Made by a program: the position numbers and the translations under genes. From a virus (taxonomy: Duplodnaviria > Heunggongvirae > Uroviricota > Caudoviricetes), in IMG/VR virus record IMGVR_UViG_2695420676_000011: 38,652 nt of DNA; one strand, given 5' to 3'. A model generated the notes under the pieces. It made no database searches, was not told the DNA's origin, and worked only from the letters and a program-made list of their open reading frames with translations. The number at the start of each line of letters is the position of its first letter. Within the stretch, counting starts at the first letter, position 1. Below, piece by piece: positions 3,068 through 34,648 of this stretch.

Positions 3068-3179
3068 AACTGAAGTTGCCCTGAAAATGAAATTTTTTTG
3101 CACAACCGCAGAACTTTTCCGCAGGGCATCAGTCTTAATTAGTGCCACTGCTTTTCTTTGATGTCCCCATTTTGTGGAG

Positions 3180-3222
3180 CCCATCAACCCCGCCATTTCG
3201 GTTCAAGGTTGATGGGTTTTTT
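3180..3222 (+). terminator. Rho-independent terminator about 110 bp downstream of ybjL
   Basis: Perfect 10-bp stem cccatcaacc / ggttgatggg with a 17-nt loop, followed by tttttt. Confidence 0.65.
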
Positions 3223-3302
3223 GTTGCCTGAAATTTATGCCGTTTAAAATCATGACGTTAGAAGCACTGTTTTTTAACGATGGCGACAAAATGGCGGCAG
3301 CG

Positions 3303-4712: not shown

Positions 4713-5194
4713 GACAGCAGCCCTCCCACCGTTTTACTGATATCGCTTAAGGCAGACGTTGCCGTTTCCTGCAGATTATTCAGTTGCGCACTGAGATCAC
4801 CGAACATATCGGACAGGGATTCATCCACCCGTTTGAGCGACAGGGTGAACTCAATCCGGCGCGGCATACCGTCGCGGAAAAACTCCGTTTTAGTCTGATT
4901 CAGTCCCTCAATCACATACATGCCATAAATCGTGCCGCTGCCTTCAATCAGGGGCCATGCTTTCCCCTGTTCTGCCATCTGCTCCAGTGCCAGCAACGAC
5001 AGCCTGCCACCTGTTATCTCCGGCATAAGAACACCGGAAAGCGTCAGCATGTCGTTGTCCGGTCCCAGAAACTGCGTGGACGGACGTCGGTTTACCCGGC
5101 TGTTTGCCGCATGTCGCCAGCTGCGTTGATACTGCAGCTCCTGATACGGCACGGTGCGCAGCATAAACACGTACAATCCCAGCACCATCATCAT
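4709..5194 (-). CDS. U: Tail protein gpU
   Basis: 161-aa product between T and D, as in P2. Confidence 0.8.
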   Translation of the reverse strand: MMMVLGLYVFMLRTVPYQELQYQRSWRHAANSRVNRRPSTQFLGPDNDMLTLSGVLMPEITGGRLSLLALEQMAEQGKAWPLIEGSGTIYGMYVIEGLNQTKTEFFRDGMPRRIEFTLSLKRVDESLSDMFGDLSAQLNNLQETATSALSDISKTVGGLLS

Positions 5195-6753: not shown

Positions 6754-8268
6754 TCACTGCGCAGAAAGTGAATCCTTGTTAATGTCGGATTCTTTCTGCA
6801 TGGAGCCGAGCGCATCATTGCCCGCTGTCAGTTTTAACTGACGCTGCAGTTCCGGCAGGTTGTTTGCCAGTTTCGCCGCGTCATCGCCAAACTCTTTACC
6901 AAACAACATAGTCATGGCAGACAGGCGCTTGTCCTGCGGCAGCGCGTTTACCTTCTCCAGCACGCGCTGGATGGTTCCCATCGCATCCTTCGTCATCTGC
7001 TTTTCAATCACTTCAGGATTGAGTTTCAGCAGATTCATCCCTTCAAAGAAACTCTTGCTTTGCATGGTGGCAATGGACAATTCACGCACCATCGCGTTTG
7101 CTGCACTGGCTGCAACCTCTGGCGCAGCGCCCAGTGTCAGGAAGGTGGAACCCAGCGCCGCCGCTTTACGATAATCCAGACGGTCAGCCACACCGCCCAG
7201 ACGTTGCATCACATCAATGATGTCTGCCCCTTTCGACATGGCGTTATCATCCAGATAGTTCAGCGCATCACCGAGCTGTTCAATATTGCGGGTGGGGATT
7301 TTGTAGAGCTGGGCGATTTTCCCCAGACTTTCTGACAGTTCATCCGCTGGCAGCTCAAAGGCTGTTGCCGCCTTTGCTGCCGTACTGGCGAAGGCCAGCA
7401 GGTCACGTTTCTGATCTTCCCAGCTGTCGTCAGGGTTTGCGACGTTCATGCGCGCACCACCTTCAACCAGTGCAGCGAAGTCCACCGCACCGTTTTCCAT
7501 CGGCAACTGTTCGCTGGCAGCCTTGATGGCATCCTGCATTTCATAAAAACGTGCAGTGCGGTTGCCATTATCGTCACGCAGACCATTGACCTGCTTTGCC
7601 ACACCTTTCATGGCATCTTCCATGCTGGTATAGCTTTTTACTGCCGCCATCACTGGCGCACCCATTGCCAGCCCTGCAGCCGTGGTGGTGGCTCCGGCAC
7701 CTGCAATACGATCACGCACCTCCAGCGAACGGGCATAACTGGCACGCGCTGCATTCATCCTGCGCTGAGCTTCCCCCAGTCGCTTCAGCCGCGCCTCCTG
7801 TTTCGAAAGTTCCTGGTTATAACGTGATGTTTCACGGGCTAAACGGGCAGTTGCTCCCGCATCGTCTTTCGCAGAAATTCCCGCCCGGTACAGTTCAGCA
7901 CGCACAAGCGCCGTCTGCTGCTGCAGCTTTTTCTGGCGTTCTTCCAGGCGCTGAACAGCCAGCCGTTGACGGCCCAGAGCAACAACCTGACGTTGCGAAG
8001 GCGGCCCCATCGCTCCCAGTTCCTGACTGAGCAAATTTGCACGCTGGCGGGCATAGTTCAGCCTGTCGCCTAATTTCTGATTTTCTGCCTGCAGCTTTCG
8101 GAAGCTGTCCAGACTGCTCCCGGCCTGATCAAGCTGCTTTATTGCATCGCGGGATTTTTTGACAGCAGCAGCCAGTTCTCTTGAACTGGCCTGCGCAGAT
8201 CGAAATGGACGGGTGAGCTTGTCAACCGCATTAAGAATGACCTGCAGACGCAGGTTGTTATCACTCAT
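6754..8268 (-). CDS. T: Tail tape measure protein gpT, N-terminal segment (ends at in-frame TGA)
   Basis: 504-aa coiled-coil-like product starting MSDNNLRLQ; its ATG overlaps the E' stop as in P2. Confidence 0.75.
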   Translation of the reverse strand: MSDNNLRLQVILNAVDKLTRPFRSAQASSRELAAAVKKSRDAIKQLDQAGSSLDSFRKLQAENQKLGDRLNYARQRANLLSQELGAMGPPSQRQVVALGRQRLAVQRLEERQKKLQQQTALVRAELYRAGISAKDDAGATARLARETSRYNQELSKQEARLKRLGEAQRRMNAARASYARSLEVRDRIAGAGATTTAAGLAMGAPVMAAVKSYTSMEDAMKGVAKQVNGLRDDNGNRTARFYEMQDAIKAASEQLPMENGAVDFAALVEGGARMNVANPDDSWEDQKRDLLAFASTAAKAATAFELPADELSESLGKIAQLYKIPTRNIEQLGDALNYLDDNAMSKGADIIDVMQRLGGVADRLDYRKAAALGSTFLTLGAAPEVAASAANAMVRELSIATMQSKSFFEGMNLLKLNPEVIEKQMTKDAMGTIQRVLEKVNALPQDKRLSAMTMLFGKEFGDDAAKLANNLPELQRQLKLTAGNDALGSMQKESDINKDSLSAQ

Positions 8269-10591: not shown

Positions 10592-11164
10592 TCAGGGGGA
10601 TTCATTGATCTTATTTGCCGGAAATTTTCTATAAATGGTAGAAACGCCTACATCAAAAATCAGTGCAATACGCTGTATTGATTCTCCGGCCTCGAGTAAA
10701 CGCCCAATCTGTGCCCACTGTTCGGTGGTCAACTTAGGACGGCGTCCACCTACTCTGCCTTTGGCACGAGCTGCAGCCAGCCCTGCCCTGGTACGTTCAA
10801 CTATCAGTTCGCGTTCCATTTCAGCCAGGGCACCCATGACATGAAAAAAGAAACGGCCCATTGGGGTACTGGTATCAATACTGTCAGTCAGGCTTCTGAA
10901 ATTCACACCACGCTGGCGCAACTCTTCTATCAGCGTAACAAGATGCCGCATACTGCGCCCCAACCTGTCCAGCTTCCAGACAACCAGCGTGTCTCCTGCC
11001 GATAGTGTCCTGAGTAGTTTTTTCAGCCCCGGTCTGTCGGACTTAGTGCCACTGATTTTGTCCTCAAAAATCCGCTCACATCCCGCGCAGTTCAGTGCAT
11101 TACGTTGCAAATCGGTGTTCTGGTCATTTGTTGACACGCGTACATAGCCAATAAGCATGATCAT
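10592..11164 (-). CDS. Serine DNA invertase (Hin/Gin/Cin/Pin family)
   Basis: 190-aa product with the IGYVRVSTNDQ catalytic-serine N-terminus and a C-terminal HTH. Confidence 0.9.
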   Translation of the reverse strand: MIMLIGYVRVSTNDQNTDLQRNALNCAGCERIFEDKISGTKSDRPGLKKLLRTLSAGDTLVVWKLDRLGRSMRHLVTLIEELRQRGVNFRSLTDSIDTSTPMGRFFFHVMGALAEMERELIVERTRAGLAAARAKGRVGGRRPKLTTEQWAQIGRLLEAGESIQRIALIFDVGVSTIYRKFPANKINESP

Positions 11165-11185
11165 CCCCCTGAATAAAAACCGGAG

Positions 11186-11521
11186 ATGATGCCAGTTAGC
11201 TGGTACCTCTGCATTTTCTTAAACGTTGGTTTTGGAGAAGGTGCTAACTGGGTTATGTTACCTGGAGGAATGATAATTCAGCGTGTTTATCTTGGATTTC
11301 CTATTGGCACCAATGCAAGACACATAACTTTCCCCCGGTCGTTTACAACAACGAACTATTCCATCTCAATTAACTGGAATGATATCGGTACTGTAACAAC
11401 TGAAACACAATCACCAGCAAATGTGGCGGTTGTTCATCAAACAAAATCATTAACAGGGGCCAGCATCTGGCAGGCAGGTCCCGGGGGATTTAATGTGGAC
11501 ATTATAGCGGTGGGGTATTGA
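11186..11521 (+). CDS. Alternative (silent) tail-fibre C-terminal cassette
   Basis: Plus-strand ORF running out of the left crossover site (FGEGANW junction), lacking its own N-terminus. Confidence 0.55.
11216..11244. repeat. Invertase crossover site (hix/gix-like), left
   Basis: ttcttaaacgttggttttggagaaggtgc; the 17-nt core ggttttggagaaggtgc recurs inverted at 12955-12971 with one mismatch. Confidence 0.6.
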
Positions 11522-11522
11522 T

Positions 11523-11951
11523 ATGTACGTATGGAGCGCTAAATCAAATGGCTTTTTCCCCATATCGGAGAAAGAAAAATTTGAGGCATCAGGTCTGTGG
11601 CCTGATGATGGTGTAATAGTCAGTGAGGAAGAACATAAAAAGTTATTTATGGATATTCCACCAGGAAAACAGATTGGAACACTGAATGGAAAACCAGCAC
11701 TGATAGATATTCCTCAGCCGACCAAAAAGGAATTAATAGCTATTGCTGAAGTTAAAAAATCCCAATTACGGGAAAAAGCTGACAGTGAAATATCCTGGCG
11801 TCAGGATGCTGTTGATGCTGATATCGCAACTGATGAAGAAACTTCAACTCTCACCGAATGGAAGAAATACCGTGTGCTGCTGATGCGTGTTGATACTTCA
11901 ACAGCACCCGATATTGAATGGCCTACGCCTCCGGCAGTTCAGGCCAGATGA
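11523..11951 (+). CDS. Alternative tail fibre assembly chaperone (Tfa/gpG family), inverted cassette
   Basis: 142-aa ORF immediately after the silent fibre cassette; C-terminus ([14 protein letters not shown]) parallels that of the minus-strand Tfa. Confidence 0.6.
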
Positions 11952-12516
11952 CATCCGGCGCGGTGCTGGTATCTGTTGCCGTCACCGCGTCAATGTAATC
12001 CAGCACGGTGTTAAGTCGGGTTGTTTCTGCCTGAGTCAGTTTCCGTCCGGCCTGTAATTTCAGCTGAATCAGACTAATGGAAGCCATTACTGCATCAATC
12101 AGTGACTGGCGCTGTGCTTCTGCTGCTTCTACTGCGGCGTTATGCTGTGCCTCAGTATCTGTCACCCATTTCTCACCATCCCATTTATCATATGGCGTTA
12201 ACGGTGAAAGCGTGACATAACCGTTTTTGATGGCACCGATATAATCCACTGTAACAGCTGCGCCATTTTCTGTTGAGTAAACAGTCTCATTGCGATGGTC
12301 TTCTTCATGGCTCCATCCCTTACCCGTAAATACTGCCACTTTCCCCGGAATGTTTTCGCCCGGGTCAATACCAGTGGAACAGGCGGGCATACTTACGCCA
12401 GTATTAATATATTCATCAGACCAGCCCGTATACTCAGATGTTTCAGCATCATAATAAAAACAACGCATATCGCCCGGCACTGTGGCCAGCCCATTTTCAT
12501 CAAAAACAGGTTTCAT
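11923..12516 (-). CDS. G: Tail fibre assembly chaperone (gpG/Tfa family), expressed cassette
   Basis: 197-aa ORF directly downstream of the tail-fibre gene, ending [15 protein letters not shown]. Confidence 0.75.
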
Positions 12517-22441: not shown

Positions 22442-24208
22442 ATGAACACCACACTGACACCCGCAGATCTCGATCCCCGTCGGCAGGCCATGCTGCTGTA
22501 CTTTCAGGGATACCGCGTAGCCCGCATTGCTGAAATGCTGGGCGAGAAAGTTGCAACCGTTCACAGCTGGAAAAAACGCGACAAGTGGGGTGACTATGGG
22601 CCGCTGGATCAGATGCAGCTCACCACCGCCGCACGCTACTGCCAGCTCATTATGAAGGAGCACAAAGAAGGGAAAGATTTCAAAGAAATTGACCTGCTGG
22701 CGCGCCAGTCGGAGCGCCACGCGCGCATCGGCAAGTTTAACAATGGCGGTAACGAAGCCGACTTAAACCCTAACGTCGCCAACCGCAACAAAGGCCCGCG
22801 CCGTCAGCCGGAAAAGAACGTTTTCACCGATGAACAAATTGAGAAGCTGGAAGAAATCTTCCACTCCTCCATGTTCAACTACCAGCGCCACTGGTGGGAA
22901 GCCGGAAAAACCAACCGCATCCGCAACCTGCTGAAGTCACGCCAGATCGGCGCGACCTTTTACTTTGCCCGTGAAGCCCTGATTGACGCCCTGCTGACCG
23001 GACGTAACCAGATTTTCCTTTCCGCCAGTAAGGCACAGGCCCACGTCTTTAAGCAGTACATCATCGACTTCGCCAAAGAAGTGGAGGTGGAGCTGAAAGG
23101 CGATCCGATGGTGCTTCCTAACGGGGCCACGCTTTACTTCCTCGGCACCAATGCCCGCACAGCCCAGAGTTATCACGGTAACCTGTATCTGGATGAATAT
23201 TTCTGGATACCGAAATTCCAGGAGCTGCGCAAAGTGGCTTCCGGTATGGCTATTCACAAAAAATGGCGACAAACCTATTTTTCCACGCCATCCAGCCTGA
23301 CCCACAGTGCTTATCCGTTCTGGTCCGGTGCGCTGTTCAACCGTGGACGCAACAAAGCCGACAAGGTGGACATCGACCTGTCCCACAGCAATCTGGCCCC
23401 CGGCCTGCTGTGCGCAGACGGGCAGTACCGCCAGATAGTCACTGTGGAAGATGCGGTGCGCGGCGGCTGCAACTTGTTCGACCTCGACCAGTTACGCATG
23501 GAATACAGCCCGGATGAATACCAGAACCTGCTGATGTGTGAGTTCGTGGACGATCTCGCGTCCGTGTTCCCGCTCAGCGAGCTGCAGGGGTGCATGGTGG
23601 ACAGCTGGGAAGTCTGGACCGACTTTCATGCACTGGCGCTGCGCCCGTTTGGCTGGCGCGAAGTGTGGATCGGTTATGACCCGGCAAAAGGTACGCAAAA
23701 CGGCGACAGCGCCGGGTGCGTGGTGGTGGCACCGCCAGCCGTGCCGGGCGGTAAGTTCCGCATTCTTGAGCGTCACCAGTGGCGCGGAATGGACTTCCGC
23801 GCCCAGGCTGACGCCATCAAAAAACTGACCGAGCAGTACAACGTGACCTATATCGGCATTGACTCGACAGGCGTCGGTCACGGGGTTTATGAGAACGTGA
23901 AAGCGTTCTTTCCTGCCGTCCGGGAGTTTGTCTACAACCCCAACGTTAAAAACGCTCTGGTACTCAAGGCCTACGACATTATCAGCCACCGCCGTCTGGA
24001 GTTTGACGCCGGACACACCGACATAGCGCAGTCATTTATGGCAATCCGTCGCGCCACCACCGCCAGTGGCAACCGCCCGACCTATGAAGCCAGCCGCAGC
24101 GAAGAAGCCAGCCACGCCGATCTGGCCTGGGCAACAATGCACGCACTGTTTAACGAACCACTGCAAGGCGAGTCCGCCAATACCAGTAATATTGTGGAGA
24201 TTTTTTGA
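22442..24208 (+). CDS. P: Terminase large (ATPase) subunit gpP
   Basis: 588-aa ORF divergent from O and followed by the portal gene, as in P2. Confidence 0.9.
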   Translation: MNTTLTPADLDPRRQAMLLYFQGYRVARIAEMLGEKVATVHSWKKRDKWGDYGPLDQMQLTTAARYCQLIMKEHKEGKDFKEIDLLARQSERHARIGKFNNGGNEADLNPNVANRNKGPRRQPEKNVFTDEQIEKLEEIFHSSMFNYQRHWWEAGKTNRIRNLLKSRQIGATFYFAREALIDALLTGRNQIFLSASKAQAHVFKQYIIDFAKEVEVELKGDPMVLPNGATLYFLGTNARTAQSYHGNLYLDEYFWIPKFQELRKVASGMAIHKKWRQTYFSTPSSLTHSAYPFWSGALFNRGRNKADKVDIDLSHSNLAPGLLCADGQYRQIVTVEDAVRGGCNLFDLDQLRMEYSPDEYQNLLMCEFVDDLASVFPLSELQGCMVDSWEVWTDFHALALRPFGWREVWIGYDPAKGTQNGDSAGCVVVAPPAVPGGKFRILERHQWRGMDFRAQADAIKKLTEQYNVTYIGIDSTGVGHGVYENVKAFFPAVREFVYNPNVKNALVLKAYDIISHRRLEFDAGHTDIAQSFMAIRRATTASGNRPTYEASRSEEASHADLAWATMHALFNEPLQGESANTSNIVEIF

Positions 24209-25245
24209 TGGGAAAGCGTAAGAAAAACCGCGCAGCGGCGATGAATCAGATCCAGCATAAAAGCCAGACTTCAGCCGAAGCATTCAGCTTCGGCGATCCC
24301 GTTCCTGTTCTGGACCGCCGCGAATTACTGGACTATGTGGAATGCGTACAGATGGACCGCTGGTATGAGCCACCAGTGAGTTTCGACGGACTGGCGCGAA
24401 CCTTCCGCGCCGCCGTGCATCATAGCTCACCGATTGCGGTGAAATGCAACATTCTGACCAGCACCTACATCCCTCACCCGCTGCTCAGCCAGCAGGCTTT
24501 TTCACGTTTTGTGCAGGACTATCTGGTATTTGGTAACGCCTACCTGGAGAAACGCACGAACCGGTTCGGTGAAATTATCGCCCTTGAGCCTGCGCTGGCA
24601 AAATACACCCGACGCGGGTTAGACCTGGATACCTACTGGTTTGTGCAATACGGTATGACAACCCAGCCGTATCAGTTCACGAAAGGCAGCATCTTTCATC
24701 TGATGGAACCCGATATCAACCAGGAGATCTACGGCCTGCCCGGCTATCTTTCTGCCATTCCGTCAGCCCTGCTCAACGAGTCCGCCACGCTGTTCCGACG
24801 CAAATATTATATTAATGGCAGCCATGCAGGATTCATAATGTACATGACCGATGCCGCTCAGAACCAGGAGGATGTGAACAACCTCCGCAACGCGATGAAA
24901 AGCGCCAAAGGTCCGGGCAACTTCCGCAACCTGTTTATGTACTCGCCTAACGGCAAAAAGGACGGGCTTCAGATCATCCCGCTGTCAGAAGTGGCGGCAA
25001 AGGATGAGTTTCTGAACATCAAGAACGTAAGCCGGGACGACATGATGGCGGCGCATCGTGTGCCGCCGCAAATGATGGGGATTATGCCGAATAATGTTGG
25101 GGGGTTTGGGGATGTGGAGAAGGCAAGCCGTGTATTCGTCCGAAATGAGCTAATGCCACTACAAAAGCGATTACAGGAGATGAATGATTGGCTTGGCAAG
25201 GAGGCGATACAGTTTAATACCTACTCGCTAGATATAGTCCCATAA
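24205..25245 (+). CDS. Q: Portal protein gpQ
   Basis: 346-aa ORF with 4-bp overlap with P. Confidence 0.9.
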   Translation: MMGKRKKNRAAAMNQIQHKSQTSAEAFSFGDPVPVLDRRELLDYVECVQMDRWYEPPVSFDGLARTFRAAVHHSSPIAVKCNILTSTYIPHPLLSQQAFSRFVQDYLVFGNAYLEKRTNRFGEIIALEPALAKYTRRGLDLDTYWFVQYGMTTQPYQFTKGSIFHLMEPDINQEIYGLPGYLSAIPSALLNESATLFRRKYYINGSHAGFIMYMTDAAQNQEDVNNLRNAMKSAKGPGNFRNLFMYSPNGKKDGLQIIPLSEVAAKDEFLNIKNVSRDDMMAAHRVPPQMMGIMPNNVGGFGDVEKASRVFVRNELMPLQKRLQEMNDWLGKEAIQFNTYSLDIVP

Positions 25246-25249
25246 TAAG

Positions 25250-25273
25250 AAAAGCCACCGTTTGGTGGCTTTT
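25250..25273. terminator. Bidirectional rho-independent terminator between Q and the HIRAN-domain gene
   Basis: aaaagccacc-gttt-ggtggctttt: GC stem flanked by A-run and T-run, between convergent genes. Confidence 0.6.
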
Positions 25274-25279
25274 CTTCAT

Positions 25280-26020
25280 TTACTCAATAGGTTCAAACTC
25301 ATCCTGAGGAATCAGCGTCGATTGACAGGCTTGGCTTAGTACTCCTGATAATTTACATAATAACCGATAGTTATGAGGAGCATCATCGCTAATCTTTTCG
25401 ACCGTTAAAGTGATTGATTTTGGATCATCCAATAACATCTTCTTGATATCATTACTTAAATACCTAGGGCAGTAACCAACGATTTCAGCTGGTTTATCTG
25501 CACGAACGACAACAGCATCCCCATCGTATTCATTTTGAAGATCCAAGCAAAGACGCAAAATTTGCCCCGGTTTCAATTCAGATACACGAGCATTAGCTAA
25601 GCTATTTAAGTAACCAAGTCCATGTAAGAAGAAAAAATGCTCAAAGTTACCATCAGAATCAACATCAATTTTTTTGAAAATCTGCAGCTGATCAGTGCTT
25701 CGTAAGCCTCCCGAGCGAGCAAGAATATCGATAGGATTTACCTTATCTTCTTCAAATCCAAGCCATTTAATGAAACTCGGATACTCTGGACGTCTCGGTG
25801 ATAAAAGGCGATTTTTAAAAAGAGGAAACAATTCTTCCGAAACATAAGTTTCACGAACATCACTCATGCCGCTAAACTTTGTAAATTTAGTAGATTTGAG
25901 AGCACCTTTGGTATACCTGAAAACATACCCCGATTTGCGCTCTTGCAAGTTACCAACAACATGCCAGTCTCTGGTATCTGGTGCCTGCCATGCGACGTAA
26001 ACGGAGTTTGTATTAGTCAT
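25280..26020 (-). CDS. HIRAN-domain protein, putative partner of the HipA-like kinase
   Basis: 246-aa ORF overlapping the upstream kinase gene by 4 bp; C-terminal ~100 aa resemble a HIRAN domain (ILRLCLDLQNEYDGDAVVVRAD...EIVGYCPRYLSNDIKKML); AT-rich. Confidence 0.55.
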   Translation of the reverse strand: MTNTNSVYVAWQAPDTRDWHVVGNLQERKSGYVFRYTKGALKSTKFTKFSGMSDVRETYVSEELFPLFKNRLLSPRRPEYPSFIKWLGFEEDKVNPIDILARSGGLRSTDQLQIFKKIDVDSDGNFEHFFFLHGLGYLNSLANARVSELKPGQILRLCLDLQNEYDGDAVVVRADKPAEIVGYCPRYLSNDIKKMLLDDPKSITLTVEKISDDAPHNYRLLCKLSGVLSQACQSTLIPQDEFEPIE

Positions 26021-26931
26021 TCTAGTAACCTTCTGCGATTTTCCATTACCATTAACGTTGCAAATCTACGTGCGCTGTCGGATATACACGATGAAGGCAC
26101 TTGGTTAAACACATCTGTAATGGAATCTTCTGTTAAAACGCTCAACTTACCTAACCAATGGTCGCGAGCGGCAACTCTCCCTTCAACTGCATGTTGAAAT
26201 GCTTCAACGGTCAGCAAGGGCTTTTTATCAGTTTTTGCTTTGAATAGCTCAGAGCGAGCTTTTCTTACAAAACATGGGATTTGTCGATTTTTATCTTTAG
26301 TATTAAGCCGTTCGTTACGCTCATCATCTAACATCTCCCTTCCTAAACTAGCGGCATGATCGTATGTTGGACACAAAAACTGCTCACCAGTTTCATTGTT
26401 AAGCATGATCGCCCAATTTTCATGATGGCGATCTTGATTACTCACAAGTGCATCGAGCATCAAATATCCACAAAATACATCTGCTGCATTTAGCCCGGTT
26501 AGATCATATACACTCGGAGGAGGCTTGATAGATTCCCTATCTAAACAACCCAATACCCTTGTGACAGTGTGTTCTCTGACCCTTACCGGCTTTTCCCCGG
26601 CTTGTAAAGGCCCAGGATAATCGAATGTCGAACTGTGAAGCACTTCATTTCCCATTACCATCCGGAAACCAGATGGAATGATATTCTGAGTCACCACACC
26701 GAATCGACCATTGTATCGCGCCAAATCATAGCTAGCATGTGGAATGTTAAGCAAATGACATAACTCAGCAGCACACTTTTCAGACCAATGCTCGCCAGTA
26801 CCTGGCCTAGAGTACTTAAACAACTGCAAATTTACAGTGTCATCGGAGAAATAGAACCAAAACTTCTCTTTGGTTCCTAACTGTTCAAGATCGTTAGCTA
26901 CGGGGCTAAGCTCTACCAATTGGTATGGCAT
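26017..26931 (-). CDS. HipA-like serine/threonine kinase (kinase core only)
   Basis: 304-aa product with a HipA-type catalytic loop VSNQDRHHENWAI and downstream CPTYDHAASLG; AT-rich; first gene of a two-gene operon. Confidence 0.6.
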   Translation of the reverse strand: MPYQLVELSPVANDLEQLGTKEKFWFYFSDDTVNLQLFKYSRPGTGEHWSEKCAAELCHLLNIPHASYDLARYNGRFGVVTQNIIPSGFRMVMGNEVLHSSTFDYPGPLQAGEKPVRVREHTVTRVLGCLDRESIKPPPSVYDLTGLNAADVFCGYLMLDALVSNQDRHHENWAIMLNNETGEQFLCPTYDHAASLGREMLDDERNERLNTKDKNRQIPCFVRKARSELFKAKTDKKPLLTVEAFQHAVEGRVAARDHWLGKLSVLTEDSITDVFNQVPSSCISDSARRFATLMVMENRRRLLE

Positions 26932-27083
26932 CTGACATCCCTGTTTAGCGGATTATGAATAAGTTAGGTTCCATTTTATCCAAACATTGTCAAATACTCT
27001 AAGATTTATTAGATGATAGAGCGATACTGTATGCATGTCCAGCAATCAAATCAATATATAACTCTTATATGACTTAGCGCGCG

Positions 27084-27102
27084 CTCGTATCCCCGCCACG
27101 CC
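27084..27102 (-). other. Candidate cos (cohesive-end) site of the prophage
   Basis: Minus strand reads GGCGTGGCGGGGATACGAG; the first 13 nt match the P2/186 cohesive end as I recall it; isolated GC-rich island in an AT-rich intergenic region in the expected Q-to-A interval. Confidence 0.3.
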
Positions 27103-27526
27103 TGCCCGCTTTATGTAGTGGTTTTCATGCACCTGCATGACATAAGCAAAAGCACGCCAGTTCTGGCTGACTTCAGCAAAAACGATCCTCAAACGATCAT
27201 GCGATCTCATGCGTCATAGTCATGCGCTGCCAAGGGAAGCGTAAATCCGTATCTGAATGACTGCTGAAAAGCGAATCATACGGGTTTACAAAGATGAAAG
27301 TTCGCTGTGAGCGAGAAGCGAACCTTGCAACTTTGTTGGCACAGTTTTAACACCAATTTTTTGAGGATAGCTAGAAAACTTGTGGCATAAAGGATCAGTT
27401 TCCCGATCGAACTTTTTATCAAGAAGGGCTCATAGCAATCGCCAGAAGAAGTGATGTTAAAGTATTGAGCTCGGCGTTAAGATTAAATAAATTACAGACT
27501 AATCCAATGTTTTGTGGAAGGATAAG

Positions 27527-28570
27527 ATGGCAGTCAAGCGCGCATACTACGGTAACGATAGTGACCGAGACTACTTAGAGCGGATATTTCAGTCAGCTAA
27601 CATTAACTTTCTCATCGGATCAGGTGCATCCCTCCCAGCGATTAAAGTACTGGGGACAATCGAAACGGATCTTCAGCAGCTTATTAATGATGAACAGGAA
27701 GATGAATACTTAAGGATGGCAGCTGACTTTTTGTCAGATGTTTGGCTACCTCATGAATGCATGTTGAAGCGCGGCTACGGCACCCCCTTCGCACCTCAGG
27801 TGATCACCGATTTGGAATGTACCCGTGCAAATTATGATGCATTTATGTCTTCACTGGAAAAGATACTGACCCGCCGCCGAACTGGCCTACTTCCGAGGCG
27901 TATTAACGTTTTTACAACTAATTATGATTTATTCATCGAAGAAGCTGCCACACGTAATAACAATATTCTTTTTAATGATGGATTCAATAGAAGAGCAAGT
28001 ATTTTGGGAGATGCGGAATTTGATGCGGGTAGCTTTAATCATTCTGTAAGTGCAACCGGAAATCTGTATAATTATAAAGTTGAGCTTCCTACTGTTAACC
28101 TTATAAAACTTCATGGTTCGCTCTCTTGGCAGCATTCTAAAGGGAAAATCATTTATCGTATTGCAGATATTAAGCCGCTTGACTTTCCCACCCTAGCCGA
28201 AATGAAAGGATGGGTACTTGCTCATGCACTTATTCTTCCACGTAAGGAGAAGTTTAAAGAGACTCTACTACAGAACGTTTATTATGATTTACTGAGAACC
28301 TATTCCAACGAGCTTGATAAAGAAGCAACTTTACTAATTGTCTTTGGGTTCTCGTTTGCTGATGAGCACATTGAAACGATAACTAAAAAAGCCCTGCGCA
28401 ACGCCACCCTGAAGCTACTGATCTTTGCTTTCGATGAGGCCAGTGTTAACGGCTTTATGGAGAAATTTCGGGATTACTCAAACGTAGAGATTATTTATCG
28501 GCCGGGAAGAAATGTTGATTTTCCGGTAATGAATAACATTATCACGTGCTATCTGGGAGGCTCGAGATGA
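27527..28570 (+). CDS. SIR2-family NADase of a SIR2-HerA anti-phage system
   Basis: SIR2-like motifs NFLIGSGAS, TTNYD and KLHGS; ATG at 27527 with RBS (ORF track start 27512 is TTG); stop overlaps the HerA start (ATGA). Confidence 0.8.
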   Translation: MAVKRAYYGNDSDRDYLERIFQSANINFLIGSGASLPAIKVLGTIETDLQQLINDEQEDEYLRMAADFLSDVWLPHECMLKRGYGTPFAPQVITDLECTRANYDAFMSSLEKILTRRRTGLLPRRINVFTTNYDLFIEEAATRNNNILFNDGFNRRASILGDAEFDAGSFNHSVSATGNLYNYKVELPTVNLIKLHGSLSWQHSKGKIIYRIADIKPLDFPTLAEMKGWVLAHALILPRKEKFKETLLQNVYYDLLRTYSNELDKEATLLIVFGFSFADEHIETITKKALRNATLKLLIFAFDEASVNGFMEKFRDYSNVEIIYRPGRNVDFPVMNNIITCYLGGSR

Positions 28571-30426
28571 GCAGGCATTTTACTGAAGAGGAAGCGGTGC
28601 TCCGTATAGGCGAAGTCTGTGAGGTTTCTGGACGCGCTGTGACAATTTTGGTCGATAAAAACAAAAATCTCAGTGACTTGTTTTATCAGGGAAAAGTTCT
28701 AAGAAATGTATCAGTGGGTAGCTTCATTGAGATCAAAAAAGGTTTCATGAGCCTGATCGGCAAGGTTGAAGCGGAACGAATCATTGAGGAAAAACATCTC
28801 GCTGGGAGCGGCAGTGATGCCTGGCGATATCGGCGATACCTGACCTCTACTCTTACGGGTTACATTGATCGTACTGGTTGCTTCATTGGTGGTTCGCGTG
28901 AACTACCTCTCATCGGCAATGAAGTCTTCGTGGTAACTGAAGAGATGATACAAACGGTTCATCAGATAGCTAATGCAGACGAAACTGTAATGAGGTTTAC
29001 TCGTACAGATCTTGAAGATATTGAAATTGCACTACCAATCAATGGTCTTATTAATTCCCACATTGCCATTTTCGGTAATACAGGCAGCGGAAAGTCAAAT
29101 ACCCTAGCCGCGCTATACAAAGCAGGTATTGCCCAAGTTAAACATATTCTCGGCAACCACTTTAGTGAAAGATGCAAATTTATTCTATTCGACTTTAATG
29201 GAGAATATACTGCCCCACGCTGTATTACTGACGAGAAGACGGTTTATAATCTCAACACGCACCATGCAAATGGTGACAAACTTCCTCTACCCAGAGAGGT
29301 TCTACTTGAGCATGATATGCTCTCAGTTCTAACCGATGCAACAGACAAAACACAGAAACCTTTCCTGAAGAGAGTTCTTGAGTTTCGCAAGAAAGTGATG
29401 ACTGCTGATAATCCTCTTGAGTTTATGCGCAATATCCTGAAGAAAAAAGTCAGACAAAATCTCTTTAGTAGCGACAAACCCAAATGCGATACTATAAATC
29501 AGTTTCTTAGCCCAATTTTCAAAGATGACCCAGAACTTATATCTGATCTTGAGTATCATTCAACTGCATATAAATGGAAATTGAGGGGTGGTAGTATTTT
29601 CAATACAGAAGCTGATACTGAGCGCTCCTATCTATTCAGTCTTGCAAGCAATTTTTTATTTAAAACTGATATGATTGAAGAACTGTTGGACTTTATGTAC
29701 TTACAGTTAATACAGGAATATTTATCTAACAAGTCTAACCCTGAACATATTTCACCAGTTATAAATAGAATGAGTGCTAACCGTAAAGATATAGCCAAAA
29801 TATTTGATACTTCCGGACAGTCTGACTTTTGGGGTGAACATAATTTCACGGTTGTGAATCTAAATATGGTTAATATAACCATGAAAAAAACGCTTCCTCT
29901 TTTGATAGCCAAGTGGGCTTACAATATGAAGAAAATGTCTACAGAGAAATCTACACTGCACATCATTATAGATGAAGCCCACAATATTTTGTCTAATACT
30001 TCTTTTCGGGAAACGGAAAGTTGGAGAGATTATCGTCTGGAAACTTTTGAGGAAATCATAAAGGAGGGGAGAAAATTTGGAGTTTTTATCACAATTTCCA
30101 GTCAACGCCCTAATGATATATCGTCGACAATCATATCCCAAGCACACAATTATTTTATTCATCGCCTTATTAATCAGAATGATCTGTACGCAATTGAAAA
30201 ATCAGTATCATATATAGATCGACTGACTGAAGAGTCGATTCCAACGCTATCTACAGGAACCTGTATTTTTAGTGGTATCGTCTGCCCCATGCCGCTCAAA
30301 TTAAGGGTAGCTGAACTTCCAATTGAAGAAAAACCTAAGAGTAATACTATTTCCTTCAACGATTTAATACCTGAGAGGCTGGGAGAGGATGACCAGAGCG
30401 ACTACGTAATAACCAGCCCTCACTAA
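28567..30426 (+). CDS. HerA-like (FtsK/HerA superfamily) ATPase of a SIR2-HerA anti-phage system
   Basis: Walker A IAIFGNTGSGKSNT and Walker B LHIIIDEAHN; GGGAGG RBS; translationally coupled to the SIR2 gene. Confidence 0.85.
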   Translation: MSRHFTEEEAVLRIGEVCEVSGRAVTILVDKNKNLSDLFYQGKVLRNVSVGSFIEIKKGFMSLIGKVEAERIIEEKHLAGSGSDAWRYRRYLTSTLTGYIDRTGCFIGGSRELPLIGNEVFVVTEEMIQTVHQIANADETVMRFTRTDLEDIEIALPINGLINSHIAIFGNTGSGKSNTLAALYKAGIAQVKHILGNHFSERCKFILFDFNGEYTAPRCITDEKTVYNLNTHHANGDKLPLPREVLLEHDMLSVLTDATDKTQKPFLKRVLEFRKKVMTADNPLEFMRNILKKKVRQNLFSSDKPKCDTINQFLSPIFKDDPELISDLEYHSTAYKWKLRGGSIFNTEADTERSYLFSLASNFLFKTDMIEELLDFMYLQLIQEYLSNKSNPEHISPVINRMSANRKDIAKIFDTSGQSDFWGEHNFTVVNLNMVNITMKKTLPLLIAKWAYNMKKMSTEKSTLHIIIDEAHNILSNTSFRETESWRDYRLETFEEIIKEGRKFGVFITISSQRPNDISSTIISQAHNYFIHRLINQNDLYAIEKSVSYIDRLTEESIPTLSTGTCIFSGIVCPMPLKLRVAELPIEEKPKSNTISFNDLIPERLGEDDQSDYVITSPH

Positions 30427-30570
30427 TTAACAAAGTGCTGAAGCGGTAACGACCGCTTCTAGCACAAAGCGGACGATCACTTATCAAAATGCCCGCCCAC
30501 CTTACGCCTCGTTTCACTCGTTGCCCAAACTAGCCCCCATCAGAATGAATCCTCCTGGAGGCAACGTTTC

Positions 30571-30804
30571 TTAATGCAGCCAGCTGTCGTCTTCCCACAC
30601 TTTCTGCATAATTTTCATCACTTGTTTTCTTTCTTCATCCAGTTGCAGTCCGGTCAGTTCCACACCGTTAGAGCTACCTTTGCGGATACGAATTACCGTT
30701 TTGGGATACAGGGGGCGCAGATTGCGGTAAAGCTCGGATTCAAGGGCGTCCAGGGTAGACTGGCTAATCTTCTGCTCTTTATCGATCATTATTTCAATGC
30801 GCAT
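30571..30804 (-). CDS. DinI-family protein
   Basis: 77-aa product MRIEIMIDK...VWEDDSWLH resembling DinI; GAGGTGA RBS; second gene of a LexA-box-preceded operon. Confidence 0.7.
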   Translation of the reverse strand: MRIEIMIDKEQKISQSTLDALESELYRNLRPLYPKTVIRIRKGSSNGVELTGLQLDEERKQVMKIMQKVWEDDSWLH

Positions 30805-30814
30805 AAAAGTCACC

Positions 30815-31003
30815 TCAACTGATGACATCCATTGAGCGGTTGTATTCGTGGGTTCTGATTTTTGCCATGAGTTCATCAGTCAATTCAGAAACCCACTGCA
30901 GAGCCAGCCCCTTCTCTTCATCACTACACTCACTAGCCGCTACAAGCTTAAGAAAAAAATCAATGCGCTGGAGCTTCAAAGACTCCAAAAAATAGTCCTG
31001 CAT
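30815..31003 (-). CDS. Small SOS-regulated protein of unknown function (position of the 186 tum operon)
   Basis: 62-aa ORF directly downstream of a consensus LexA box and upstream of the DinI-like gene. Confidence 0.45.
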   Translation of the reverse strand: MQDYFLESLKLQRIDFFLKLVAASECSDEEKGLALQWVSELTDELMAKIRTHEYNRSMDVIS

Positions 31004-31044
31004 CTTTCCTCCTATGACACCAAAGCGATACTGTATACATAACC

Positions 31045-31062
31045 ACTGTTTATATTTACAGT
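31045..31062. promoter_or_regulatory. LexA operator (SOS box)
   Basis: aCTGTttatatttACAGt: CTGT-N8-ACAG with an all-A/T spacer, about 40-60 bp upstream of the 62-aa ORF. Confidence 0.7.
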
Positions 31063-31155
31063 ATATAATAATCTTACTGATGTAAAACGTTTTTTTACGT
31101 TCATCAGCCAGAAATGCCTGGTATTATTAAGAGCACGAATTGTTAACCCGCGTAA

Positions 31156-33570
31156 TTAATACAGGTTCCGCCACTTATCATCTTCCTGCAAACGCTGGTT
31201 CCGATAGAAGATACGCAGGCCTGCTCCTGACGGAATACTGCCGCCGCGAAGGAGTAAATCGACCTCTTTCTCGCTGCCATCAAATCCCCTGGACTTCAGT
31301 TCATACACGAGCTGCTGTCGCTGATGATCTGTAATTCGCTGTTTGTAGTCTTTACGCCGTTTCGGTTTCACCAGGCGTAACCTTGCTGCCAGTTCCCGGC
31401 GCTCTTTTTTGCTCATACTGTGCAGGTAATCGTGCAACTCCTTGTCATCCATACGGGTGATATCAGTTCTGGTATCTCCATCAGCTGATTTGTCTTTCCC
31501 TTGTTGGTACAAATTTTCAGCAAGGGGACAGTTATTGCCACGAGTCCAAGGGGCGCAAGCGCCCTGGTCGGCTGCCGCCTCCTGAACGTCAACGGCCTTA
31601 CGAACCATTTTCCACTTCACTGCATGAGTGCAGATCTTGCCCTCTGCAATGGGTGACCAGATGCCATAAATACGAATGCCGTGATCGCCATAGGCTGTCG
31701 GCTCTTCGTTGATTTCATAAGCGGTTCTGATCAAGTGATATTTGCGGGGAACCAACACGCCGCCCTGCTTCATAATGTAGGTGGCAAAACAGCCAGCATC
31801 AGCAGCAGCCAGAATGGCATCAAGGCGCGGGTTATCCAGTACCGGAGCACCTGCTTTTTTGTCACCCTGTTGCCTTGCCGCCTGACCAGCCAGCAATCGC
31901 AGTTCACGGTAAGCCTGACGCCCCGGAATGCCAAAGAAGCGGAATTGCTGAACACGATGCAGAGACGCCCAGACATTAACGTATTCAGCGTTATCACGCA
32001 GAGATTTACCCGTTTCCTTGCTGATCTCGCCAGCCAGACCACGCCCGTCAATGTTCTTACTGATATATTTCGCGATGTAGCTTGTCGGCGTTCCTTTGCG
32101 CGGGTTAATCAACTCAGACTTAAAGCGCGGCCCAGTGTTATTGCCCAGCTCCTCGCGGTCTTCACGGATGGCAAACTTACGCAGTAATGCAGTGATGGCG
32201 CGGCGGTCTTTTTTGCGCATAAAACACAACAGGTGCCAGTGAACTGTACCGTCATGATGCGGCTCAGCCACCCGCACGCCATACCAGCGCAATCCGGCTT
32301 TGTGCATCGCCTTACGAAATGCAGCAAACATGCCGACCAGATAGTCGCTGCTTTGTCTTACCGTCGAGTTTGTCCAGGTCGGGTTGGGTCTGCCGTTATT
32401 GAGCGTGGAATGGAAACGCGACGGACAGGTGATAGTGTAGAAAACGGCGCAGTCACTGCGCATTTCCGCGATAAGCTCCAGACCTTTAACACAGGCCATC
32501 ATCTCATTGCGGCGATGCGCCGGGTTGCTGCTGCTGGCGTTTACCACATCTTCCATATCCAGCGTGTCGCCGTCTTCGTTCACCAGTTCATGAGAACGGA
32601 AAAACTCCAGCGACTTACGGCGCTGCTCACGTTTATGCATCACGGCTTCATAGCTGACATAGGGGGATGCTTTTTTGCTGACCAGGCAGACAGCACGCAA
32701 CTGCTCTTCCCGCCATTCACAACGCATCTTCCATAATTTCCGATACCACCAGTCGGCACACAACATACGCGCCAACGAACCCGGAATGAGTTCATAGGGC
32801 ACGGGTTTACGGCGGTTTCTTTTCCGACGGAGTTGCTCAAACGCAGGTGGGATGACATCCAGACGCAGGGTTTCCGCTGCCACCTTTTCCCATGTCTTGC
32901 GGATTTCTTCTGGCTTAACGTCATCGGTGGCATACAAATCACCACAAGCTGCATCAAGGCACATACTCATATGCGCAGCTACCAGGGTGGACAGGCGTTT
33001 CACCTGATCCTGACTCATTTCAGGCAGGATCAGCAGGCCGTCCAGCCCTTCATGGCTTGCCATAAAGCGAAAAGATGCAGATAGCTGACTGTCGCGTACA
33101 TGCTCCAGTCGTTCCAGACATGGCTTAATCGTCTCACGTAAATAGCGGGAATAAGCCTTTGGCTTGCCCAGGCTGCTGAAGTATTCAATACGTTGCATCA
33201 GCGGCTTGCTGATATGGGAAGGCTGGGCGTTGACGTCCGCCAGAATGACCATGTCTGAATTAAAACGCTGCTGCTCATGCGCCAGCTTTGCCCGGCTAAT
33301 GAGCTTATCCTGCTCCATTTCGCGCTGGACAGGATCACGTGATTCATTAAAGAAATAACGCTCCCAGACCTGATCACTCAGTGCCTCGCGGCGCAACTGT
33401 TCCTGCTCGTTATCGGCAGCGTACAGAGTGATCAGGTTTGAAAGCGTAGAAACCGGCGCAACTTCCGCCGGGTCCAGATAAGGGTTAATGGCCTTTTTCG
33501 GGCTGTTCCATGAGAATGCTGCAGCAGCCTCGTTAAAGCCGCAGCAGTTGTTCATATCGGCATGACTCAT
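31156..33570 (-). CDS. A: Replication initiation protein gpA (rolling-circle nickase)
   Basis: 804-aa ORF at the end of the early operon, in the P2/186 gene A position. Confidence 0.85.
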
Positions 33571-34424
33571 GCACGTACTCCGTACACGGCAGAACTATCC
33601 ACGCCACGCGAATAATCAAATCCCATCCAGCAGCGCGGCCCGGAAACAGCAATGATTTCTGTTGCTGATTTACCCTCGCCAGCTGCCACACCGATGCTGC
33701 GTTTTACCTTGATATAGTGGTGAGTAAAATTGCGATACAGCGAACGGATCAGGGATGTGTCACTGTTAGAAACAATGACTGGATGTCCTTCTGATGACCG
33801 ATGTTCAAGAACGGATGCCAGGTGATACTGGTCATCTTCAGTGAAACCATCAGTGTGATAGCCGGAAAACGTACCGTCATACGGCGGATCGCAATACACC
33901 ACATCTCCCGCCTTCAACATCGCCAGCGTTTCATCAAAGCTGGCGCAGATAAACGTTGCTCGCTGGGCTTTTTCTGCAAATGTGCGAAGTTCTTTTTCAG
34001 GGAAATACGGATTTTTATAATTACCGTAGGGGATGTTGAAATGCCCGCTCTTGTTATAGCGACATAAACCACGGTAACCGTGACGATTAAGATACAGGAA
34101 ATATACCGCTTTCATGAAATCAGTAATTTCAGTTGAGCAGTTAAACTCCTGCCTTATGTTGTAATAAGCCACCTCCCTGTTTGCGATCTCAAATAAAACT
34201 CTGGCGCGAGATATAAACGATTCACAATCAGCGGAAACCTTTTTATAGAGGTTGATTAAATCAGGATTAATATCCGCAACCAGATAGCTGGGATAATCCG
34301 TTTCCATCATCACAGCACAGGAACCCGCGAAAGGTTCAACCAGTCGCGGGCCAGCAGGAAGGTATTTTTTCAGTTCTGGCATAATGGCGGTTTTATTTCC
34401 CGCCCATTTCAGGATGGTGCTCAT
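33567..34424 (-). CDS. DNA N6-adenine methyltransferase (Dam-like)
   Basis: DPPY catalytic motif ([10 protein letters not shown]) and N-terminal AdoMet-binding region ([10 protein letters not shown]); start set at [11 protein letters not shown] with GGAGGTG RBS, overlapping the upstream stop. Confidence 0.8.
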
Positions 34425-34648
34425 ACAGCACCTCCGTTGTAATGTTTGCCTTTCAGTTCTGCGATTTCCTGACAGGTAATGCAAAGCTGCACTCCCGGAA
34501 TGGCGCGGCGTCGTGCTGGCGGAATTGGCGCTTCACATTCAATGCAAAGTACGCGTGACACGCCCGGTGATTTGGCACGGGCTGCACGGATATGGCGCTG
34601 GCGTTCTTCTTCAACGCGCTGCTGTACGAGATCCATTGCATCAGCCAT
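34421..34648 (-). CDS. TraR/DksA-family C4 zinc-finger protein
   Basis: 75-aa product with CIECEAPIP...CITCQ four-cysteine motif. Confidence 0.7.
   Translation of the reverse strand: MADAMDLVQQRVEEERQRHIRAARAKSPGVSRVLCIECEAPIPPARRRAIPGVQLCITCQEIAELKGKHYNGGAV

Follow-up and report, generated by a model that had tools for sequence, protein, structure and literature searches.

The P2/186-like Escherichia coli prophage in our window (the whole stretch of DNA that was analysed, 38,652 nucleotides) carries two adjacent genes resembling SIR2 and HerA beside its cos site, which raises the question of whether they form an anti-phage defence system and, if so, of which kind. The host element has full late genes, CI/CII, gene A, and an integrase, and its tape measure gene carries a nonsense codon. 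An earlier note had described a SIR2-like protein with NFLIGSGAS, TTNYD, and KLHGS motifs and a 619-aa HerA-like ATPase with Walker A and Walker B motifs, encoded by two translationally coupled genes with an ATGA overlap, had called this pairing the signature of SIR2-HerA defence, and had let the reading stand or fall with domain searches and with HMM and structure comparison to characterised SIR2-HerA pairs. All of these points were borne out by the results given below. The features of the locus are listed in Table 1.

Table 1. Features of the SIR2-HerA locus and its surroundings (positions in the window)
Feature	Position	Strand	Basis or remark
SIR2-family gene	27527..28570	+	ATG start, 347 aa (ORF list)
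HerA-family ATPase gene	28567..30426	+	ATG start, 619 aa (ORF list)
GGAAGGA, Shine-Dalgarno-like, for the SIR2 gene	27516..27522	+	direct reading of sequence
GGGAGG, Shine-Dalgarno for HerA, within the end of the SIR2 gene	28555..28560	+	direct reading of sequence
Candidate sigma-70-like promoter TTGAGC-17-TAAATT	27465..27493	+	8/12, own relaxed scan
Perfect 8-bp stem-loop GAAGCGGT-AACG-ACCGCTTC	30440..30459		direct reading of sequence
SIR2-HerA cargo cassette	27229..30560		3332 bp, 40.5% GC, blastn borders
cos cohesive-end site GGCGTGGCGGGGATACGAG	27084..27102	-	likeness to phage 186 cos
SOS operon, backbone flank	30571..31063	-	convergent with HerA
LexA box CACTGTTTATATTTACAGTA	31044-31063	-	0 expected by chance
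62-aa ORF of SOS operon	30815..31003	-	
DinI-like gene	30571..30804/30876	-	Pfam DinI 1.3e-22
Gene A (replication)	31156..33570		ORF list and annotation
Portal gene (Q)	24205..25245		ORF list and annotation
Terminase	22442..24208		annotation
HipA-like kinase gene	26017..26931	-	neighbouring cargo, other side of cos
HipS-like/HIRAN gene	25280..26020	-	neighbouring cargo; Pfam HIRAN 1.1e-13

The start and stop codons of the two genes overlap as ATGA at 28567-28570, indicating translational coupling. The mechanical ORF start of the SIR2 gene is a TTG further upstream, at 27512, and the ATG was taken as the start; the RefSeq annotation of identical loci contains two CDS with ends equal to those of both ORFs. 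The standard promoter scan returned no plus-strand site of 9/12 or better upstream of the SIR2 gene, and neither promoters nor terminators were enriched in the standard scans compared with shuffled sequences. The relaxed scan gave a sole candidate promoter in this region, ∼34 bp upstream of the SIR2 ATG, which may serve the pair as a weak promoter. The stem-loop begins 14 bp past the HerA stop codon, where the HerA and DinI genes converge, and could possibly act as a transcription stop; it has no T-run on the plus strand and was not reported by the terminator scan. SOS control of the pair was considered and rejected, because the window contains a single LexA-box match, which lies upstream of the DinI operon and not upstream of SIR2. 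Rfam and tRNA scans found nothing inside or beside the cassette; RybB, identified by the Rfam scan, is located far from it at 3147-3225.

The SIR2 protein contains the NAD-binding GSGAS (GxGAS) motif at residues 31-35, TTNYD at 130, and KLHGS at 194, the last two contributing the catalytic residues Asn-132/Asp-134 and His-196, respectively. Asn-132 and His-196 align with Asn-226 and His-287 of SaSir2, and the three residues correspond to Asn-163, Asp-165, and His-212 of PsSIR2; GSGAS and all three residues are invariant in 44 homologues. The protein matches the Rossmann domain Pfam SIR2_2 above the gathering score (E 1.3e-12, 48.4 bits, with the cut-off at 24.5) and the PADLOC SIR2 model PDLC04080 over its full length (E 6.1e-211, residues 1-347 of 347), and the best match in the PDB sequence search is 8yhx_G (E 3.5e-21). 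With the AF2 model (pLDDT 85.6) as the Foldseek query, the first 39 ranks are occupied exclusively by SIR2 chains from solved SIR2-HerA complexes (8yhx, 8su*, 8uae, 8j4u, 8wld, 8w9l, 8woc, and 8sxx), with E values of 6e-16 to 1e-9 and TM-scores of at most 0.68, whereas the other defence sirtuins DSR2 and ThsA rank below these, from E ∼1e-6. The predicted fold is thus nearer to the SIR2 chains of SIR2-HerA complexes than to ThsA or DSR2.

The HerA protein is an ASCE/RecA-like ATPase with a β-rich N-terminal domain (residues ∼13-122), a Walker A motif GNTGSGKS at 170-177 (Lys-176), and a Walker B motif IIIDEAH at 466-472 (Asp-469/Glu-470), both motifs being invariant in 44 homologues. It matches Pfam DUF87, the HerA central domain (E 3.7e-19, 70.2 bits against a cut-off of 23.2), and nearly the whole of the PADLOC HerA model PDLC04097 (E 6.5e-267, positions 3-616 of 618). 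The PDB sequence search gave 8wiv (E 3.3e-28) and 8yho (E 4.6e-26), and the AF2 model (pLDDT 80.1) is closest in Foldseek to 8wld_M (E 7e-27) and 8yhx_A (E 1.4e-25).

The Pfam and PADLOC E values of the two proteins exclude chance similarity, and sequence matches of the two proteins go to the corresponding chains, SIR2 or HerA, in the three solved complexes, from S. aureus (8yhx/8yho), E. coli (8j4u/8su9), and Paenibacillus (8w9l/8wiv/8wld), whose chains are also the best matches of the predicted folds. The genes are adjacent and co-oriented, and the same SIR2_2 to DUF87 order is kept at 42-43% identity in unrelated bacteria. The homologous pair in Steroidobacter also has a 4-bp overlap, that on a metagenome contig is separated by 25 bp, and both adjoin integrases or a relaxase; in the Photorhabdus homologue HerA is split. 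Sequence comparison and modelled folds together support the recognition of the gene pair as a SIR2-HerA anti-phage defence pair. Filing it under the NCBIfam equivalogs was rejected, as the scores fall far below the cut-offs, with 99.8 bits against 500 for SIR2_antiphage (NF042942) and 137.5 against 800 and 117.6 against 850 for HerA_antiphage (NF042943/4). The pair is the same kind of system in a differing subfamily and, at only ∼16-20% identity to the solved systems in Foldseek alignments, a subtype distinct from these as well. Searching the literature for WP_028985770, WP_029364119, and WP_086482717 turned up no publication that names these proteins.

The cassette is flanked by the DinI/SOS operon on one side and by cos on the other, and its genes are read in the direction leading away from cos. 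It is variable, low-GC content between gene A and the portal gene Q, which places it in the cos-proximal gpA-gpQ hotspot of P2-like phages as defined in PMC9122126. The first 13 bases of the cos site are those of the annotated phage 186 cos (NC_001317 1-19), and 150 bp around it (27077-27228) are kept in all compared loci and in 91 P2-like phage records; the place equivalent to the SOS operon in phage 186 is taken by the p95/LexA/tum operon. The earlier note had put the pair at the right end of the phage genome, beside the SOS operon, in the old/tin slot of P2, and had called the operon AT-rich relative to the phage backbone. Position, at the right-hand end of the DNA in the virion, and direction of transcription agree with this placement, and the cassette has 40.5% GC (41.8% for SIR2, 39.1% for HerA) compared with 56.5% for the structural genes, 52.7% for gene A, and ∼56% for the prophage overall. 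The HipA-like/HIRAN pair on the other side of cos matches PADLOC PDC-M03A (2.1e-122) and PDC-M03B (3.4e-93), is near-identical to P2 hotspot system #20 of Rousset et al. 2022, and occurs in many genomes without SIR2-HerA. We rejected it as a part of the SIR2-HerA system, because it lies across cos on the opposite strand and each module is found without the other. The hotspot comprises two slots that exchange independently of each other, a SIR2-HerA slot and a hipIN slot, divided by the site cos.

The borders of the cassette were set by blastn of positions 24300-31200 of the window against six E. coli loci. The one locus that carries hipIN alone matches 24300..27228 and then resumes at 30561..31200, whereas five SIR2-HerA loci with differing left neighbours all match 27077..31200. 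One prophage that is otherwise collinear lacks the cassette, which moves as a unit between loci. The identity of the cassette is 99.4-99.95% among the five other loci compared directly and at least 99% in 13 genomes, and on its left it adjoins at least six different neighbours. Only 18 of 5426 complete E. coli genomes contain it, the backbone hotspot being present in ∼1293; together with its varied left neighbours and its GC contrast, this marks the cassette as mobile cargo. Megablast found no match to it among 50,697 phage records, so the subtype is absent from sequenced, deposited phage genomes; prophages and other elements are the only places where it is seen, and it is widespread in Enterobacterales and beyond.

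The locus is very probably a self-contained SIR2-HerA abortive-infection cassette of two genes, carried as lysogenic-conversion cargo of a P2/186-like prophage between the SOS/DinI operon and cos. In homologous systems the NADase is switched on by HerA binding, both activities are required for defence, NAD+ is depleted on infection, and NADase-dead mutants lose defence (PMC11514289, PMC11472057). By analogy, both proteins would be made at a low level in the lysogen from the weak promoter of the cassette itself, and the hexameric HerA ATPase ring would bind a SIR2 ring by way of its N-terminal barrel, in a complex that is kept inactive in healthy cells. Infection by another phage would then cause the SIR2 subunits to hydrolyse NAD+ through Asn-132, Asp-134, and His-196, possibly accompanied by ATP-sensitive DNA cleavage. 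The infected cell would no longer support phage growth, protecting the lysogen population and the prophage. NAD+ depletion and phage protection by this pair are what we infer from these homologues.

An improbable variant of this scheme is that the SIR2-HerA pair confers immunity chiefly by DNA cleavage or translocation, in a nuclease/helicase mode, and not by NAD+ depletion. The Paenibacillus and E. coli complexes do show ATP-inhibited ssDNA nuclease and helicase activity in vitro (PMC11472057), and the HerA motifs are fully conserved here; however, the subfamily keeps the NADase catalytic residues without exception, and in homologues NADase-dead mutants lose defence and NAD+ falls on infection. 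It is less probable still that the pair rides along as a passenger, silent or decayed, with intact-looking ORFs that are unexpressed or no longer protective in this host. The lack of a strong promoter upstream of SIR2, the nonsense codon in the tape measure gene, and the split HerA in Photorhabdus are consistent with decay, but both ORFs are full length with every catalytic motif, and the near-identity of the cassette in five loci with unrelated left neighbours and its presence at this level in 13 genomes argue against it; in addition, PMC13586616 reports that defence pseudogenes are rare in P2 hotspots. A role of the HerA-type translocase in prophage packaging or replication, suggested by the DNA translocase fold and by the position of the cassette 425 bp from cos, has a negligible likelihood and was rejected, because P2, 186, and the vast majority of the P2-like prophages that share this backbone lack the cassette, whereas non-phage elements bearing a relaxase or integrase also carry the pair, and P2 packaging relies on its own terminase, which is present here.

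As abortive-infection cargo, the pair is a correct but ordinary finding, since SIR2+HerA is already listed as a common resident of the gpA-gpQ hotspot, where it is system #14 with 188 occurrences (Rousset et al. 2022, Table S5B). The HerA of the solved E. coli system is the representative of this system #14 (E 1.2e-202). Beyond correct annotation the locus has little significance, adding one more P2-like prophage that probably carries abortive-infection cargo beside cos. The subtype would provide a cheap extra comparator for the signal that switches SIR2-HerA on.

The pair shares features with each of the solved complexes at low identity. S. aureus SaSir2-HerA (PDB ID 8YHX/8YHO; PMC11514289) is the best match of our SIR2 protein both in sequence (3.5e-21) and in fold (6.4e-16), and shares the two-gene arrangement, the catalytic Asn and His, and in HerA the Walker A/B motifs and C-terminal ATPase core. 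In contrast to the protein described here, SaSir2 is 428 aa rather than 347 aa long, with ∼20% identity, SaHerA is without ATPase activity, and the system comes from a Gram-positive host, outside any P2 context. EcSIR2-HerA, or Nezha (PDB ID 8SU9, 8SXX, 8J4U, and 8UAE), has the E. coli host and the P2 gpA-gpQ hotspot in common with our pair, and no chain reaches a higher TM-score against the SIR2 model than EcSIR2 (0.68, 8uae_B). Nevertheless, identity is only 16-19% in Foldseek alignments (phmmer 1.5e-11 for SIR2 and 2.4e-20 for HerA), PADLOC and NCBIfam assign it to another subfamily, and EcSIR2 (415 aa) has a C-terminal helix that serves dodecamer assembly, compared with the 347 aa of our protein. 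SIR2-HerA of Paenibacillus sp. 453MF (PDB ID 8W9L, 8WIV, and 8WLD; PMC11472057), which assembles as a tetradecamer:hexamer, is the best match of our HerA in sequence (3.3e-28) and fold (7e-27), the fold match taking in the N-terminal barrel region. Its HerA is 696 aa long with a C-terminal arm domain, whereas HerA here has 619 aa and no arm, and the sequence similarity between the SIR2 proteins is weak (8.5e-5).

Stoichiometry and activation details already vary among the three solved systems, and since SIR2 is shorter here than in any of them (347 aa against 381-428 aa), they may differ in this subtype too. That the compact enterobacterial subtype assembles or is activated unlike the solved complexes, in SIR2 ring stoichiometry or infection signal, is an unlikely though not far-fetched proposal; it might be tuned to competitors for cos, because the cassette lies beside a cos that P4 satellites hijack and that rival P2-like phages have too. 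The old-tin pair of P2 occupies the same slot, from gene A and the accessory ORFs to cosR, and has the same orientation, from near cos toward A. It also excludes other phages, the role that SIR2-HerA would have here, but its proteins are unrelated, Old being an OLD-family ATPase/nuclease and Tin blocking the growth of T-even phages. In the HerA-DUF4297 defence system (PDB ID 8XAU, 8ZIQ, and 9C1M) the fold of the HerA partner is the same and its scores are similar, whereas the effector is a DUF4297 protein and that of the present pair is clearly SIR2.

The gene pair that the earlier note read as a SIR2-HerA anti-phage system consists of two coupled ORFs, and the observation of the pair is confirmed in full. 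The HerA ATG and the SIR2 stop codon share the ATGA at 28567-28570, and a Shine-Dalgarno-like sequence precedes this ATG, both read directly in the sequence; the RefSeq CDS ends of both genes are identical in matching loci of other E. coli genomes. All quoted motifs are present, with GSGAS at 31, TTNYD at 130 and KLHGS at 194 of SIR2, and GNTGSGKS (Walker A) at 170 and IIIDEAH (Walker B) at 466 of HerA. The block is AT-rich relative to the phage backbone, as described, with 40.5% GC versus 56.5% in the late genes. The cassette has only weak expression signals, with a sole promoter candidate, and a LexA-box search of the window found none upstream of SIR2.

Both proteins exceed the Pfam gathering score, as SIR2_2 (1.3e-12) and DUF87, "Helicase HerA central domain" (3.7e-19), and both are matched end to end by PADLOC system-specific models (PDLC04080, 6.1e-211; PDLC04097, 6.5e-267), so that a standard defence annotator would call exactly this SIR2-HerA subfamily. 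Against the NCBIfam equivalogs SIR2_antiphage and HerA_antiphage, the pair scores far under the cut-offs (99.8 versus 500 and 137.5 versus 800); judged by sequence, the pair is a subfamily other than these. In the PDB, every match of SIR2 is a SIR2 chain from a solved SIR2-HerA complex (8yhx 3.5e-21, 8j4u 1.5e-11, 8w9l 8.5e-5), and HerA matches HerA chains of such complexes together with HerA-DUF4297 and archaeal HerA; the entries are the S. aureus, E. coli and Paenibacillus systems (PMC11514289, PMC11472057). AlphaFold2 models have pLDDT values of 85.6 (SIR2) and 80.1 (HerA). The best 39 Foldseek matches of the SIR2 model are all SIR2 chains of these three systems (E 6e-16 to 1e-9, TM up to 0.68), clearly set apart from DSR2 and ThsA (about 1e-6), and the best matches of the HerA model are the HerA chains of 8wld, 8yhx, 8xau and 8j4u. 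Pfam, PADLOC, PDB and Foldseek thus agree on the SIR2 and HerA assignments. Residues N132 and H196 of SIR2 align with N226 and H287 of S. aureus SaSir2, both required for NADase activity (PMC11514289), and N132/D134/H196 correspond to N163/D165/H212 of Paenibacillus PsSIR2 (PMC11472057). In alignments of 44 homologues (identity 100-40% for SIR2, 100-50% for HerA), N132/D134/H196 of SIR2 and the Walker A (G170-K176) and Walker B (D469, E470) residues of HerA are invariant. The SIR2_2-DUF87 order is retained in homologues with 42-43% identity, in Steroidobacter with the 4-bp overlap and next to a relaxase and an integrase, and on a metagenome contig with a 25-bp gap and next to an integrase. The family comprises 1954 and >7500 database clusters in Enterobacterales, rhizobia and others. 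In Photorhabdus, where SIR2 is 82% identical, the HerA gene is broken into ORFs of 352 aa and 214/247 aa in an island that also carries transposases and a RelE/HTH pair, and this copy is likely pseudogenised.

Coordinates of the features in the window and of the split HerA in two Photorhabdus comparison loci
Feature	Position	Strand	Remarks
SIR2 gene	27527..28570	+	longest ORF from 27512; ATG start, 347 aa
HerA gene	28567..30426	+	longest ORF from 28546; ATG start, 619 aa
Sigma-70 candidate	27465-27493		8/12; upstream of SIR2
GGAAGGA		+	5' of SIR2 ATG
GGGAGG	28555-28560	+	5' of HerA ATG
Stem-loop	30440-30459		3' of HerA
cos	27102..27084	-	GGCGTGGCGGGGATACGAG; first 13 bases identical to annotated phage 186 cos
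LexA box	31044-31063	-	CACTGTTTATATTTACAGTA; none expected by chance
62-aa ORF, then DinI-like gene	30571..31003	-	3' of LexA box; Pfam DinI
HipA-like kinase, HipS-like/HIRAN protein	25280..26931	-	304 and 246 aa; overlapping genes; cos-to-portal interval
Split Photorhabdus HerA	L015 7041..8891; L016 6294..8144
Tape measure ORF pieces	6754..8268; 5191..6753	-
Serine invertase	10592..11164	-	Resolvase + HTH_7, 2.9e-53
Alternative fibre C-terminus/tail-fibre-assembly genes	11186..11521, 11523..11951 (+) vs 11923..12516 (-)		oppositely oriented; adjoin invertase
Dam-like D12-class N6-adenine methyltransferase	33567..34484	-	Pfam 5e-75; directly downstream of gene A

The window contains host ybjM, ybjL and RybB, followed by the P2/186-like prophage from ogr to integrase. 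Positions 24300-31200 were compared by blastn with six E. coli loci. Five carry the same SIR2-HerA pair and share 27077..31200, with different left-hand neighbours (retron Ec67; ParA + RelA/SpoT; retron St85; AIPR; hypothetical proteins). The sixth, which has the HipA-like/HIRAN pair without SIR2-HerA, matches 24300..27228 and resumes at 30561, a jump that delimits the insert as 27229..30560. The cos site lies inside a 150-bp segment (27077-27228) that is common to the compared loci and kept in 91 P2-like phage records, so that the A-to-Q hotspot is two slots parted by cos. SIR2-HerA occupies the right-end slot (DinI to cos) and the HipA-like/HIRAN pair, resembling the hipIN type, the left-end slot (cos to portal); counting that pair, at least six left-slot modules are found beside the same cassette. 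These varied partners suggest recombination within or beside the conserved cos segment. Both modules occur together in only 3 of 5426 complete genomes, and the two slots exchange independently. The right-end slot is filled by orf97 in phage 186 and by old-tin in P2, and SIR2-HerA is transcribed away from cos exactly like old-tin, which fits the earlier note's placement in the old/tin slot. The SOS operon named as its neighbour is also found, with a LexA box, a 62-aa ORF and DinI, and corresponds to the phage 186 p95 operon, which has the 146-aa Tum in place of the short ORF.

The HipA-like/HIRAN pair is a candidate second defence or toxin-antitoxin module. It matches the PADLOC candidate PDC-M03A/B (2e-122 and 3e-93), is almost identical in sequence to P2-hotspot system #20 of Rousset et al. 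2022 and is similar to the hipIN modules described by Gerdes et al. 2021; no anti-phage test of it was found in the literature text and tables consulted. The best promoter-like site on the minus strand, TGGACA-17-TATCAT (27041..27013), lies some 100 bp upstream of the HipA-like gene and is overlapped by a CTG-N10-CAG motif (CTGTATGCATGTCCAG, 27028-27043). Because the motif does not match the stricter LexA pattern, CTGT-N8-ACAG, SOS control of the module is only a weak possibility.

Elsewhere in the prophage, an in-frame TGA (6754..6756, minus strand) divides the tail tape measure gene in two, with CAG TGA TTG where an intact homologue has CAG TGG TTG; tail assembly may fail in this prophage, or the TGA may be a sequencing error. 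A putative invertible tail-fibre region spans 10592..12516. The Dam-like methyltransferase gene is a common accessory of 186-like phages. The RybB sRNA gene (3147..3225, plus strand, 105 bits) directly adjoins the ogr end, and rcdA is next after the integrase end in a related genome, so that the prophage family appears to be inserted beside, or into the end of, rybB.

The interpretation as a SIR2-HerA system is supported. For the pair itself, the analysis shows that the genes are coupled and their pairing retained, that the catalytic sites are intact, that the fold fits and that the cassette is mobile; its whole mechanism we infer from characterised homologues (PMC11514289, PMC11472057). A HerA hexamer would bind a ring of SIR2 subunits via the N-terminal regions of both, binding would relieve SIR2 autoinhibition, infection would lead to NAD+ hydrolysis, and ATP would hold the complex back in uninfected cells; ATP-inhibited nuclease activity is also reported in the homologues. 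Stoichiometry and activation differ among the three solved systems and so are not assumable for the 347-aa SIR2; it is considered unlikely that this subtype, compact and divergent as it is, departs from those systems in its assembly or its trigger.

Among 5426 complete E. coli genomes, 18 carry the subtype, with an identity of >=99% in 13 and of about 91% in the other 5; it was not found among deposited phage genomes. It has its own PADLOC models and RefSeq annotation; a literature search by protein accession found no paper on it. The pair is to be regarded as already known, in system, location and biology, with the subtype described from sequence. The gpA-gpQ hotspot of P2-like phages was defined by Rousset et al. 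2022 (PMC9122126), whose Table S5B gives SIR2 with DUF87, as "SIR2 + HerA (Gao et al. 2020)", as system #14 (188 occurrences) and HipA_C with HipA_C/HIRAN as #20 (150 occurrences). Fast modular swapping at P2-like hotspots is described by Moura de Sousa et al. 2026, and the six-locus comparison shows the same swapping. The HerA sequence given for system #14 is that of the E. coli complex in PDB 8J4U/8SU9. The E. coli system with a solved structure is therefore a resident of the P2 hotspot too, as a subtype other than that of the window.
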